Below, in pieces: positions 1 through 45,728 of a stretch of DNA of 62,436 nucleotides. The stretch is from a bacterium. GTDB taxonomy: Bacteria > Patescibacteriota > Minisyncoccia > Phycocordibacterales > UBA5272. Numbering within the stretch: the stretch's first letter is position 1; each line of letters starts with the position of its first letter. A program made the translations under genes and the position numbers. Under the pieces are notes generated by a model. The model saw nothing but the letters and a program-made list of their open reading frames with translations, did no database searches and was not told the origin of the DNA. The stretch lies in NCBI GenBank assembly GCA_023267555.1, contig JAHFMZ010000001.1:1-62436 (forward strand), written 5' to 3'.

Positions 1-1090
<1,090 letters not shown>

Positions 1091-1181
1091 GACTAGCACT
1101 AGTGCTGGTTATCATTTATACGTTGTCTACGTATAAATTGTTAGTTGTTCTTTTTTCATGTGTGTTTCATTAAAGTTCAAA

Positions 1182-1301
1182 CGGGGTATAGCTCAGAAAA
1201 ACTTTTAATTGTTTGCCAAGTAAAATCCGGCGGACTTATTAGTTGGCAGAGCGTCCTTGCAAAAGGAAATTTCGGTGGTTCAAACCCACTTACCCCGACC
1301 A
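1182..1301 (+). tRNA. tRNA-shaped element with a ~45-nt insertion in the D loop and a non-canonical anticodon arm (isotype not assignable)
   Basis: Acceptor CGGGGTA (1182-1188) pairs with TACCCCG (1291-1297), followed by A73 and an encoded CCA (1299-1301). The D stem is UA-GCTC..GAGC and the T arm is GGTGG-TTCAAAC-CCACT. About 1197-1240 sits inside the D loop. The anticodon position folds as TCCTT-GCAA-AAGGA (4-nt loop) or as a 3-bp stem with the 8-nt loop TTGCAAAA. Confidence 0.55.
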
Positions 1302-1339
1302 TAACTTGAAACGATTCGCAAAAACAAAGTAATTTTAGG

Positions 1340-1410
1340 GACCTAGTAGCTCAGAGGTGAGTGCCGGTGTTGAATCACAGGAGGTACTGGTTCGAGTCCA
1401 GTCGAGGTCG
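1340..1410 (+). tRNA. tRNA-shaped element directly upstream of 5S, with a 6-nt (or 8-nt) anticodon loop (isotype not assignable)
   Basis: Acceptor GACCTAG pairs with CGAGGTC with one A-G mismatch. It has a UA-GCTC D arm and a T arm ACTGG-TTCGAGT-CCAGT. The anticodon arm pairs CCGGTG/CACAGG around the loop TTGAAT. Flanks TTTTAGG and CCTAAAA extend the acceptor helix. Confidence 0.5.
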
Positions 1411-1431
1411 CCTAAAATTATTTTGAGTTTT

Positions 1432-1547
<116 letters not shown>

Positions 1548-5056: not shown

Positions 5057-6388
5057 ATGAAATTCCAAAGAAATTTCCATCTCTCCTTTGTCATCATCAC
5101 GGATGTCATTTTTTTAACTTTATCTCTTTATATTGCGCTTTTTTTGCGTAATTTTTTTGATGGTAATACTTTAAATGTTTGGCAACTTTTCTTGGGACAT
5201 ATTTTATATTTCGTACCGCTTTATATTTTAATGATTTCTATTTTATATATTTCTCTTGCATATAGCGATACGACACTTGCTTATTTAAGACGAAGTATTC
5301 CGAAACTTGCAGAATCTTTAACCATCTCTGCAGTCTTTGGTATTTTATATTTTTATATTTTTGCTACTTATTTGCCCATTAGTCCAAAAGTAACATATGC
5401 ATTATTTTTTGCTGTAAGTTTTATTTTGCTTGCTCTTTCTAGAATTGCTTATGCGAAACTTCCTTTACTCGGTGCGCATATAAATGCAGTTGTAATTATA
5501 AAAAGAGGAAGTATTTATGAAAATGTTATTCAAGAAGTGGGAATGAATGCTCCGAGAGCAACTTTTACTCGTGTCACAGAGTTCACAACAAAAAGTGTGG
5601 CGGATTTATTGTCAAAAAGTGGAGCAAGTTTAATCGTTTATGATAATACCGACAAAGAAATTGTTCAATTAATTTCAATGTTGCCGACACATATAATTCG
5701 TTATGCCACAGTCCTTTCGGGAGATATTTTGTATGAACATATTTTTGGTAAAATATTTCTTCCAGCATTTAATGAAGAATCACTTCTTCGTGATTATTTA
5801 AATCAAAAGCCATTTTATGAAATTATTAAACGACTTTTTGATTTAATTATTGCTATACCATTTTTTATTATCACAATTCCTTTTATTGTTGTTGGAATTA
5901 TAGCTATATATATTGAAACTGGACGTCCAGCATTTATTTTTCAAGAACGTTTAGGGGTTGGTCGCAAAATTATGCGTATTCCAAAGTTACGTTCTATGTC
6001 ACAAAATGTAAATGGTGCGTGGGTTGGGGAAGGGGAAAATAAAGTAACCAAAGTTGGAGCATTTTTGAGAAAGACTAGAATAGATGAGTTACCACAACTT
6101 TGGTCTGTAATGAAAGGTGATATGTCGCTCATTGGTCCTCGTCCAGATATGACAGGATTAGAAGCTCGTCTGCGTGAAGAAATTGATTTTTATCACGCTC
6201 GTTATACTGTTCCACCAGGATTATCTGGTTGGGCGCAAGTTACACAAGTCGCTGTTCCTCAAAATGTCGAAGAAACTCGTGAACGTTTTGCTTATGATAT
6301 GTATTATATTAAATATCGTTCTATGTTTTTAGATTTTGGTATTGCTCTTAAGACAGTTCGTATTCTTCTTTCTCGAATGGGACATTAA
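5057..6388 (+). CDS. polyprenyl-phosphate glycosylphosphotransferase (bacterial sugar transferase, WbaP-like)
   Basis: N-terminal TM helices plus a C-terminal sugar-transferase domain: RIDELPQLWSVMKGDMSLIGPRPDM..PGLSGWAQV. Confidence 0.8.
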   Translation: MKFQRNFHLSFVIITDVIFLTLSLYIALFLRNFFDGNTLNVWQLFLGHILYFVPLYILMISILYISLAYSDTTLAYLRRSIPKLAESLTISAVFGILYFYIFATYLPISPKVTYALFFAVSFILLALSRIAYAKLPLLGAHINAVVIIKRGSIYENVIQEVGMNAPRATFTRVTEFTTKSVADLLSKSGASLIVYDNTDKEIVQLISMLPTHIIRYATVLSGDILYEHIFGKIFLPAFNEESLLRDYLNQKPFYEIIKRLFDLIIAIPFFIITIPFIVVGIIAIYIETGRPAFIFQERLGVGRKIMRIPKLRSMSQNVNGAWVGEGENKVTKVGAFLRKTRIDELPQLWSVMKGDMSLIGPRPDMTGLEARLREEIDFYHARYTVPPGLSGWAQVTQVAVPQNVEETRERFAYDMYYIKYRSMFLDFGIALKTVRILLSRMGH

Positions 6389-6512: not shown

Positions 6513-7565
6513 ATGAAAATCTTTATTACTGGAGGTGCAGGATATGTGGGAGCAATGCTTATTGATCAATTTGCGAAGCGTCAGGATGTTGAAAAAATAA
6601 TTACACTTGATAAAGAAAAAGAAACAGAACTTACGGCAAAAAATATAAATAAAGACAAAATTATTTATTTAGAAACAAATACATCTGATAATTGGGAAGA
6701 AAAAGTAAAAGAATATAATCCAGATGTTGTGATTCACACAGCGTGGCAAATTCGTCATATGTATGGACAAGAAGAATTGGAATGGAAATGGAATATAGAT
6801 GGATCAGATAAAGTGTTTGATTTTGCTTTTAATACGCCGTCAGTAAAGAAATTAATTTATTTTTCTTCCGTTTCTTCTTACGGAGCATTTGCAGATAATA
6901 GTATGGATCATTTTTATAAAGAGGAAGAACCATTCAGAAAAAGTGGATATCTTTATGCTGAAGAAAAAAGAATTTGTGAAGAACATTTGGAAGAAAGATA
7001 TAAAAAAGCAAAAGAAAATAATTGGAATGGACAAGTATTTATTGTGCGCCCAGCAGCCATCACTGGCCCACGTGGTCGTTATGATCGTATTCGTTTTGGA
7101 CTTCAATCTGCGTTATCTGGTAATCTTCACGGAGGTTTTGCATATAAAATTGTCACCTTGCTCACGTCATTTGTTCCAGTTACAAAGAAATGGTTGCGCC
7201 AATATATACACGAAGATGATGTTACCGATATTGTAGCTCTGTTTACTTTCAATAATTTAGAAGGTTCTTACGAAGTATTTAATATTTCTCCACCGGGAGA
7301 TGTTGTTCTTGGAAAAGATATGGCTCGCGCGGTTAATAAAAATATTTTACCGATTTTCCCGTGGATGGCGCGGTTGGCTTTCTTTTTCTTTTGGCACGTG
7401 ACTCGTGGGAAAATTCCGACATCTCCAGGAAGCTGGAAAGGGTATTCTTATCCAATTGCAGTTGATGGTTCAAAAATTACAAAACAATATGGCTTCCAGT
7501 ACAAATATCAATCAAAAGATGCTTTTGTAAATAATGAAGGAAGATACAAGGTAATTATAAATTAA
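6513..7565 (+). CDS. NAD-dependent epimerase/dehydratase family protein
   Basis: Rossmann start MKIFITGGAGYVG at the internal ATG 6513. The upstream 19 codons of ORF 6456.. overlap a terminator-like hairpin. Confidence 0.75.
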   Translation: MKIFITGGAGYVGAMLIDQFAKRQDVEKIITLDKEKETELTAKNINKDKIIYLETNTSDNWEEKVKEYNPDVVIHTAWQIRHMYGQEELEWKWNIDGSDKVFDFAFNTPSVKKLIYFSSVSSYGAFADNSMDHFYKEEEPFRKSGYLYAEEKRICEEHLEERYKKAKENNWNGQVFIVRPAAITGPRGRYDRIRFGLQSALSGNLHGGFAYKIVTLLTSFVPVTKKWLRQYIHEDDVTDIVALFTFNNLEGSYEVFNISPPGDVVLGKDMARAVNKNILPIFPWMARLAFFFFWHVTRGKIPTSPGSWKGYSYPIAVDGSKITKQYGFQYKYQSKDAFVNNEGRYKVIIN

Positions 7566-40368: not shown

Positions 40369-40378
40369 CATCTTTTTT

Positions 40379-40730
40379 GTTCTACCTATAAGCCGAATTC
40401 TGTCTTTGTGCTTACGCACAATGTGTAATCATGTATCTGGGATGATTGTTACCAATCACCTCTAGCGACACTCCCGTATTACTACGGGCACGATCTTGCA
40501 CACACGTAAGGATTTAGCCGTTTCAATTATGTGTTACCACATACATCATCCGTATAAAATTTCTTTTGTACGGAACCTCCAGCTTTCGCTTCGGGCGTCT
40601 CTGCTCGCACCTCTATGATTGCTCACGATGGGAATTACCCACTACGCTTGTTAATCAAATAACTGTGTGTTCGGACTTTCCTCTCTCAATATTAGTATTT
40701 CAAATATGAAGAGCGATTACCTAGTAGAAC
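40379..40730 (-). ncRNA. rnpB: RNase P RNA (bacterial type)
   Basis: The minus strand carries GAGAGGAAAGTCCGAAC (CR-I/P4) and ACAGAATTCGGCTTAT (CR-V/P4). P1 pairs GTTCTAC.. at the 5' end with ..GGTAGAAC at the 3' end. Confidence 0.85.
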
Positions 40731-40736
40731 AAAAAA

Positions 40737-45613: not shown

Positions 45614-45662
45614 AATTAAAAACCACAACAATTGTTGTGGTTTTTAATTTTACTGTGCTGGG
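45601..45662. terminator. perfect 31-bp palindrome (bidirectional terminator candidate) spanning a CDS stop and the tRNA-Phe 3' end
   Basis: CCCAGCACAGTAAAATTAAAAACCACAACAA|TTGTTGTGGTTTTTAATTTTACTGTGCTGGG has no mismatch and no loop. Confidence 0.7.
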
Positions 45663-45728
45663 AGGCAGGCTCGAACTGCCGACCCTTTGCTCTTCAGGCA
45701 AATGCTCTACCAACTGAGCTATCCCAGC
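45656..45728 (-). tRNA. tRNA-Phe (anticodon GAA)
   Basis: Minus strand GCTGGGA-TA-GCTC-AGTTGGTA-GAGC-A-TTTGC-CTGAAGA-GCAAA-GGGTC-GGCAG-TTCGAGC-CTGCC-TCCCAGC-A. Confidence 0.9.

Follow-up and report, generated by a model that had tools for sequence, protein, structure and literature searches.

Between the 23S and 5S ribosomal RNA (rRNA) genes of a Patescibacteriota bacterium (GTDB lineage Minisyncoccia; Phycocordibacterales; UBA5272) lie two elements that fold like transfer RNAs (tRNAs) and lack a usable anticodon arm. They are found in a 62,436-nucleotide (nt) stretch of contig JAHFMZ010000001.1 (assembly GCA_023267555.1), the whole of which is referred to here as the window. Neither element is a decoding tRNA. 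Both appear to be tRNA-derived, non-decoding modules that have kept the tRNA body, and comparison with related genomes points clearly to selection on their shape. The modules are accessory, having been lost and gained as blocks and sometimes swapped for a different tRNA body. On balance we lean, though not strongly, towards the view that both would be recognised, as parts of the pre-rRNA, by RNase P and tRNA 3'-end enzymes and serve as their substrates, with an auxiliary part in clearing the spacer.

The two tRNA-like elements

The elements and their unusual parts are:

1182-1301, + strand: element 1, non-decoding tRNA-like RNA of the C1-G72 / A73 / CCA class (Rfam tRNA score 32.1 bits)
1197-1242, + strand: hairpin of about 46 nt in the variable alpha region of the element 1 D loop (52 nt in the Rfam alignment against 5 model positions)
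1254-1267, + strand: stunted anticodon arm of element 1, UCCUU-GCAA-AAGGA (14 nt instead of 17)
1340-1410, + strand: element 2, non-decoding tRNA-like RNA with a 6-nt 'anticodon' loop, TTGAAT, at 1370-1375 (Rfam tRNA score 38.8 bits)

An earlier note, made from the sequence alone, had credited both elements with convincing acceptor, D and T arms and element 1 with an encoded CCA, and alignment to the Rfam tRNA model (RF00005, gathering threshold 29 bits) and folding bear this out, with 7-bp acceptor stems and T loops of the GTTCRA type in both. Element 1 spans 1182-1298 and is extended to 1301 by the CCA at 1299-1301; its acceptor stem pairs CGGGGTA (1182-1188) with TACCCCG (1291-1297), the discriminator is A1298, the D stem is formed by GCTC (1191-1194) and GAGC (1249-1252), and the T arm reads GGTGG-TTCAAAC-CCACT. 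Folded alone it gives a cloverleaf, with a minimum free energy (MFE) of -38.1 kcal/mol and a z-score of -3.5. It is not called by ARAGORN. The D loop is 54 nt long, about 46 nt above normal and close to the surplus of about 45 nt first estimated. In the MFE fold the hairpin formed there has three stems (1200-1203/1241-1244, 1206-1208/1236-1238 and 1211-1217/1229-1235), and the AG on the 5' side of the insert and the UUGGCA containing G18 and G19 on its 3' side are retained. The insert has no match in E. coli genomes, the window or 50 loci, and shows no similarity to E. coli 16S rRNA above that of shuffled sequences (z 0.1); we therefore rejected the idea that it is an rRNA mimic or a repeat. 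In the anticodon arm three model positions are deleted in the Rfam alignment, and the two folds drawn in the earlier note, 5 base pairs (bp) capped by GCAA or alternatively 3 bp with an 8-nt loop, both hold.

Element 2 scores 48.6 bits with R1, a clade-specific covariance model. Its acceptor stem contains one A.G mismatch, and its 6-nt loop, correctly given as UUGAAU from the outset, is returned by Rfam and by ARAGORN, the latter reporting 'tRNA-??? anticodon (ga)', a 2-nt anticodon. There is no CCA, GCCT coming next. As had been noticed, the flanks extend the acceptor helix (GUAAUUUUAGG / CCUAAAAUUAU, 11 bp), and the discriminator G1410 is bulged from the continuous helix that results. The 3' end lies 25 nt before 5S rather than about 20. 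A canonical tRNA-Phe(GAA) is indeed present at 45656-45728 (71 bits), and derivation of element 2 from it was rejected, as the two show no similarity.

In neither element, then, is a 5-bp anticodon stem combined with a 7-nt loop, U33, a purine at position 37 and a readable anticodon, and Rfam, ARAGORN and the folds all agree with the manual folding that had first led to this view. High-scoring canonical tRNAs that had simply been misfolded by hand were not seen: the RF00005 scores of 32.1 and 38.8 bits are marginal beside the 50-74 bits of the eight genuine tRNAs in the window, and ARAGORN reads no proper anticodon in either element. Indel errors had been raised as another explanation of the odd loops. 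Contigs from two groundwater DNA runs cover window positions 1072-1450 with 0 differences and 0 gaps, so the loops are not assembly indels.

Occurrence and conservation in related spacers

The gene order 23S, spacer, 5S, gene for a protein of 255 amino acids, rodA is conserved, and about 34 distinct related (Paceibacteria-type) spacers were collected by three routes: from contigs encoding homologues of the 255-amino-acid protein, by a metagenome scan with the 5S leader, and by scanning species-representative genomes with a degenerate pattern for the 5' half of 5S. The spacers range from 94 to 694 nt in length and differ in the number of elements they hold (related loci are given as L numbers):

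Spacers with no element: L017, L021, L023, L026, L028, L041/L015, L050
Spacers with two elements: the window, L005, L008, L031, L037, L047, L048
Spacers with one element: all remaining loci

Elements are present in about 80% of the related genomes; among the species representatives of the clade, 21 of the 24 informative genomes have one or more. No element lies on the strand opposite the rRNA, and two slots, each bounded by a covarying closing helix of its own, accommodate most of them. Model R1 detected no non-decoding tRNA-like sequence outside 23S-5S spacers in the 265 kb searched, and no second copy of element 1, element 2 or the D-loop insert was found in the 62-kb window or the fetched loci.

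The earlier note had looked to homologous operons for conservation of the odd loops; the tRNA core is conserved, whereas the odd loops vary between relatives. Occupants of the same slot have unrelated anticodon loops, and across the relatives this region consists of 5- to 8-nt loops, triplets with A34 or inserts of 30-110 nt. The anticodons that ARAGORN reads in spacer elements, mostly in the 5S-proximal slot, are gta, tca, agc, ggc, cgg, aca, ctt, aaa, ata, cca and att (A34 in 5 of 11). Loops of 6 or 8 nt are found in 8 further spacer elements, and in 8 of 19 ARAGORN calls the anticodon is given as 2 or 4 nt. Another 13 elements, 103-181 nt in length, are missed by ARAGORN because of the inserts they carry. 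Some occupants look canonical, namely those of L051 (loop TTGATAA, Ile GAU), L025 (Pro CGG, 64.7 bits) and L033 (Lys CUU, 66.6 bits), and the spacer slots probably began as real tRNA genes. For element 1 the C1-G72 pair and A73 suggest an origin from tRNA-Pro, yet in L051 an acceptor and T arm of this type accompany an Ile (GAU) loop.

Selection on the tRNA body is indicated by the way in which the stems have changed. In an alignment (A3) of 28 spacer elements 94.6% of the cells in the acceptor, D and T stems pair, compared to 66.6% for shuffled and 44-50% for slid sequences, with changes on both sides in 18 of 21 pairs and a covariation score of 0.775 versus 0.241, although the fitting of A3 to the model biases the pair counts towards the modelled structure, and the covariation could partly stem from different ancestral tRNAs. 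One family was for these reasons also counted by hand. It comprises 12 elements, including element 1, that share C1-G72, A73 and an unusual G49.U65, and it keeps 82 of 84 acceptor, 44 of 44 D and 60 of 60 T pairs (186 of 188 stem cells); at eight pairs (acceptor 3, 5, 6 and 7, D 3 and T 2-4) both partners have changed in a compensatory way. The anticodon arms of the same 12 elements cannot be aligned to one another. Since 99% of the stem pairs are kept despite a scrambled anticodon arm, neutral decay is unlikely to explain the elements. Beyond the stems, U8, A14, G53, U54, U55, C56, A58 and C61 are invariant and G18/G19 are at least 90% conserved, and inserts are confined to the D-loop alpha region, the anticodon loop and the variable region, all of which spare the L-shape. 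The discriminator is followed by CCA in 22 of 32 elements, and by CC, whatever comes next, in 29 of 32.

The number of elements needs at least nine changes on the tree of the neighbouring protein. The neighbouring proteins of L048, with two elements, and L023, with none, are almost identical, and the spacers of the two differ by a single block of about 350 nt holding both elements. Sister loci also differ (L026 none and L032 one; L041 none and L045 one), and L050, the neighbouring protein of which is 63% identical to that of the window, has no element. In other cases the body itself has been exchanged: the flanks of L033 and L039 are 95% identical and their element bodies 60% identical. Contigs of relatives in both DNA and RNA runs likewise omit or swap elements.

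Spacer architecture and the proposed role of the elements

The architecture of the spacer was taken from an MFE fold of 1087-1620. The features of the 23S-5S unit, and the gene for the RNA of the enzyme proposed to act on it, are:

1-1086, + strand: 3' part of 23S rRNA, model positions 2507-2925 (Rfam LSU_rRNA_bacteria, 305 bits)
1089-1138, + strand: two 10-bp hairpins right after the 23S 3' end (MFE fold; similar ones in relatives)
1146-1166, + strand: conserved TTCTTTTTTCATGTGTG motif, TTCTTT(T)CATGTG, putative 3' strand of a long 23S processing stem (motif in nearly all related spacers)
1164-1177, + strand: 5' strand (GUUUCA..AGUU) of the closing helix of element 1, paired with 1303-1312 (MFE fold)
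1303-1312, + strand: 3' strand of the closing helix of element 1, AACUUGAAAC (MFE fold)
1313-1330, + strand: conserved linker GATTCGCAAAAACAAAGT, near-identical in the window, L005, L008, L020 and L031, with a variant in L022
1329-1339, + strand: 5' strand of the closing helix of element 2, GUAAUUUUAGG, 11 bp with 1411-1421
1411-1421, + strand: 3' strand of the closing helix of element 2, CCUAAAAUUAU (MFE fold)
1422-1435, + strand: 5S leader strand (MFE fold)
1436-1544, + strand: 5S rRNA (Rfam, 68.3 bits)
1545-1557, + strand: 5S trailer strand (MFE fold)
1586-1614, + strand: likely terminator of the 23S-5S unit, a 13-bp GC-rich hairpin followed by a U run (MFE fold and sequence)
40373-40732, - strand: RNase P RNA gene (116.6 bits, threshold 100)

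About 21 nt upstream of window position 1 the contig stops, and the 23S leader lies outside the window. Pairing of the 23S processing stem was read in L025, L039 and L047, relatives with a whole 23S. In these the TTCTTTTTTCATGTGTG motif forms base pairs with CACATGAAAAG of the 23S 5' leader, so that 1146-1166 would be the 3' strand of that stem. An outer helix around the whole spacer in the MFE fold (1148-1163/1564-1578) was rejected, since in relatives with a complete 23S its 5' strand is paired to the 23S leader, and its 3' partner is unconserved. The 5S rRNA is enclosed by a 23-bp leader-trailer helix that pairs 1422-1444 (the leader and the first 9 nt of 5S) with 1535-1557, and both leader and trailer sequences are almost invariant across the clade. 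Between these stems sit the elements with their closing helices. That of element 1 pairs 1164-1169 with 1307-1312 and 1174-1177 with 1303-1306, and covaries, with 12 bp in L005 and TTTTTAAA/TTTAAAAA in L008 and L031. That of element 2, which continues directly into the acceptor stem, covaries in L037 (ATGTTAGG/CCTAACAT), and other clades differ (e.g. GATATATG/CATATATC). The layout, with all parts on one strand and upstream of the terminator, suggests that the elements are co-transcribed with 23S and 5S.

Other modules were seen in the spacers of relatives. Many have an extra long hairpin between the 23S end and the elements, starting with a second CATGTG motif (CATGTGGTG...CACCACATG), which looks like another insertable module of the 23S-5S spacer. 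A structured insert of about 400 nt, located upstream of the tRNA-like element, is common to L036 (about 100-620, - strand) and L038 (about 190-660, + strand) and has no Rfam match that reaches gathering score. An RNA contig of 164 nt from an L023-like relative, found in a wastewater metatranscriptome, covers 5S leader, 5S and trailer at a depth of 813, of the same order as the 5S core, and the extended leader-trailer helix may thus persist in an abundant RNA species.

We propose that selection would keep in these elements what tRNA-end enzymes read, namely the 7-bp acceptor/T-arm stack, the elbow of D loop and T loop, the discriminator and CC(A), leaving the anticodon arm free to shrink, change or hold inserts. 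RNase P would first cleave the 5' end of each module, and tRNA 3'-end enzymes would then trim back to the encoded CCA; encoded CC(A) disfavours RNase Z. The spacer between the rRNA stems would in this way be chopped into tRNA-shaped pieces, providing an auxiliary, non-essential separation and clearing of the 23S and 5S precursors. In element 2 the AU-rich closing helix would have to open for RNase P, or else the coaxial helix would serve as a cleavage site for a double-strand RNase. The retained features are the set that concerns RNase P and 3'-end enzymes, not synthetases or the decoding site, which favours the processing idea in a weaker form than the punctuation role put forward in the earlier note. 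The core kept by relatives and the anticodon lost by them are consistent with that role; the elements are nonetheless dispensable and do not determine the 5S 5' end.

Several observations weigh against the proposal. The 23S and 5S rRNAs each lie in a long stem of their own, enough for separation of the RNase III type. The elements are not needed for making 5S, because L017, L021, L023, L026, L028, L041 and L050 share the 5S helix and have no element, and the differences between L048 and L023 and between sister loci, as well as the empty spacer of L050, tell the same way. The 3' cut of element 2, 25 nt from 5S, cannot alone make the mature 5S end, element 1 is 137 nt away from it, and neither cut would define the mature end. 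The acceptor of element 2 runs straight into the 11-bp helix, which is unfavourable for RNase P. Depth over 1089-1439 was zero in four groundwater metatranscriptomes of the same study, in which the runs were examined as contigs. The possible model bias and mixed ancestry in the alignment of 28 elements also belong here. Finally, the RNase P RNA of the window has a strongly reduced P15-P17 region (6 nt compared to 29 in the model), so that its binding of substrate CCA may differ from that in E. coli; the CCA-binding GGU of P15 was not identifiable from the alignment, and two thirds of RNase P RNAs in the candidate phyla radiation (CPR) are without it (Lui et al., PMC8172020).

Four other explanations can be set against processing. 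The elements may be neutral relics of Ile-, Pro- or Lys-like tRNA genes that retain their shape through recency or gene conversion, which we regard as unlikely. The canonical-looking occupants of L051, L025 and L033 and the dispensability of the elements fit such a history, and the divergent bodies of L033 and L039 could be explained by conversion or replacement. However, neutral decay would give the 45-50% pairing of the slid controls, whereas arms that have diverged beyond alignment in the C1-G72 family accompany 186 of 188 paired stem cells with compensation, the elbow nucleotides are invariant, and inserts occur only where the L-shape is spared. CCA is also enriched relative to real tRNA genes, being encoded by only 2 of the 8 in the window, and full gene conversion would wipe out the inserts.

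It is improbable, to a similar degree, that the elements are selfish or exchangeable tRNA cassettes flanked by stems and moved by recombination or an unknown mobile mechanism, the shape serving the element and not the host. Such cassettes would account for the presence or absence of a block in the near-identical L048 and L023, the at least nine changes of state and the replacement of bodies within kept flanks. By eye, element 1 of L048 lies between TGTGTATTCTTTT and TGTGGTTCTTTTT, an imperfect direct repeat. Against this, no second copy was found in the 62-kb window or fetched loci, all elements lie on the rRNA strand in the 23S-5S spacer with none dispersed in the 265 kb searched, and no integrase, nuclease or reverse transcriptase adjoins them. 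Conserved rRNA flanks would moreover permit spacers to be swapped by ordinary homologous recombination, with no need for mobile machinery.

A third explanation, which we consider doubtful, is that the elements are tRNA-shaped scaffold RNAs, made one to one with rRNA, that bind ribosomal proteins or the ribosome (as checkpoint, decoy or by occupying a site), with functional inserts. It draws on the anticodon-position inserts of relatives, some of which, in C1-G72 elements, copy universally conserved 16S hairpins. The insert of L005 (element at L005:1276-1418) is identical to E. coli 16S 408-432 in helix 16 (25/25, z 14.9), and those of L048 (element at 5332-5446, - strand) and L034 (element at 7054-7172, - strand) resemble 16S 516-542, the 530 loop in helix 18 (24/27, z about 9.8), where the hairpin stem is, by eye, maintained by compensatory changes. 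Helix 16 and the 530 loop are both in what we take to be the S4/S12 neighbourhood of the 30S subunit, and an intact elbow and CCA are what ribosomal tRNA sites contact. However, the insert of the window is unlike any rRNA segment (z 0.1), element 2 carries none, Rfam returns no small-subunit (SSU) rRNA match in the L048 inserts, and the elements are dispensable. Further 16S-like inserts suspected in L046, L042 and the second element of L048 (near 16S 1170) were rejected, at z 1.8-2.4 and with no Rfam SSU match. In a bolder form, and with as little confidence, it may be speculated that Paceibacteria-type CPR spacers make one-to-one scaffold RNAs displaying exchangeable hairpins, which would titrate or chaperone ribosomal proteins or test-load subunits. 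The elbow, acceptor stem and CCA would then ensure precise excision and stability, and the D-loop hairpin of the window would be a display arm.

That these are working tRNAs, with a removable D-loop insert, an 8-nt loop that reads four bases or a functional 6-nt loop, is hardly credible: both do pass the Rfam gathering score and element 1 encodes CCA, but the scores are marginal, the anticodon arm of element 1 is 3 nt short, same-slot anticodon regions are unrelated in relatives, tRNA-Phe(GAA) is present elsewhere in the window, and neither element has the G3.U70 pair required for anticodon-independent charging by alanyl-tRNA synthetase. The intron that the earlier note had allowed for, like the expanded loops, finds no support. 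The insert is 46 nt in a D loop, where a bacterial group I intron or an archaeal bulge-helix-bulge intron would lie in the anticodon loop, a permissive Rfam scan of 1-1700 gave no Intron_gpI match overlapping the elements, the organism is bacterial, and we know of no bacterial splicing system that removes a 46-nt D-loop hairpin.

Comparison with known systems and other features of the window

RNase P excision of spacer tRNAs, such as tRNA-Ile and tRNA-Ala between 16S and 23S, helps to separate rRNA precursors, and the elements described here occupy the same kind of position in the transcription unit. They differ from functional spacer tRNAs in that the window elements and most of their relatives are without a usable anticodon loop. 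tRNAs between 23S and 5S in CPR genomes have been listed by Lui et al. 2021 (PMC8172020). Our literature search found no paper that calls such CPR spacer 'tRNAs' non-decoding, nor any on non-decoding tRNA look-alikes in bacterial rRNA spacers.

The archaeal precedent mentioned in the earlier note does exist. A tRNA-like structure before 5S in Haloferax volcanii is reported to be cut by tRNase Z (Hoelzle et al. 2008, RNA 14:928, as cited in PMC3296008). The two systems share a non-decoding tRNA shape within the rRNA transcript just upstream of 5S, with the enzyme reading shown in vitro in Haloferax and proposed here. The archaeal structure abuts mature 5S, whose 5' end is made by the tRNase Z cut, whereas our case is bacterial, with a gap of 25 nt and a 23-bp stem belonging to 5S itself. 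The elements here also encode CC(A), occupy two slots, have closing helices and inserts, and are often gained, lost and swapped.

Plant mitochondrial t-elements, which lie at the ends of mRNAs and rRNAs and contribute to end formation (Forner et al. 2007, PMC1920247), are also degenerate tRNA-derived structures that have lost decoding and act as RNase P / RNase Z signals in polycistronic transcripts. The window elements resemble them in their tRNA-like, non-decoding fold within what is probably a longer transcript: they share a strand with 23S and 5S, lie between the stems of the two and precede the terminator. Unlike the organellar t-elements, which directly define neighbouring ends, they are optional and the rRNAs have their own stems.

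tRNA-like 'punctuation' is thus known from organelles and from one archaeal rRNA operon, and a description from a bacterial rRNA operon was not found in our literature search. Here an entire ultra-small clade appears to keep anticodon-less tRNA bodies in two fixed pre-rRNA slots, yet gains, loses and swaps them rapidly. Annotation pipelines will mislabel some of these as tRNAs, e.g. 'tRNA-Phe(AAA)', 'Tyr(AUA)' or 'SeC(UCA)', which distorts CPR tRNA inventories, inferences on codon usage and completeness checks. The elements may also serve as a natural experiment on the substrate needs of RNase P and related enzymes, and the 16S-hairpin mimics in those of relatives hint at a link with ribosome assembly that can be tested.

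Two other features of the window concern its rRNA and tRNA genes. The peptidyl-transferase region of 23S is interrupted at 114-797 by a group-I-like insert of 684 nt that is without a long open reading frame and matches Intron_gpI weakly, at 31 bits, below the threshold of 50; 23S group I introns are present in relatives too (L048, 53.7 bits). At 57128-57214 (- strand) there is a tRNA-Ser with anticodon ACT (loop TTACTAA), A34 being unusual among bacteria except in tRNA-Arg(ACG), and a divergent tRNA-Ser(GCT) lies 124 nt away.

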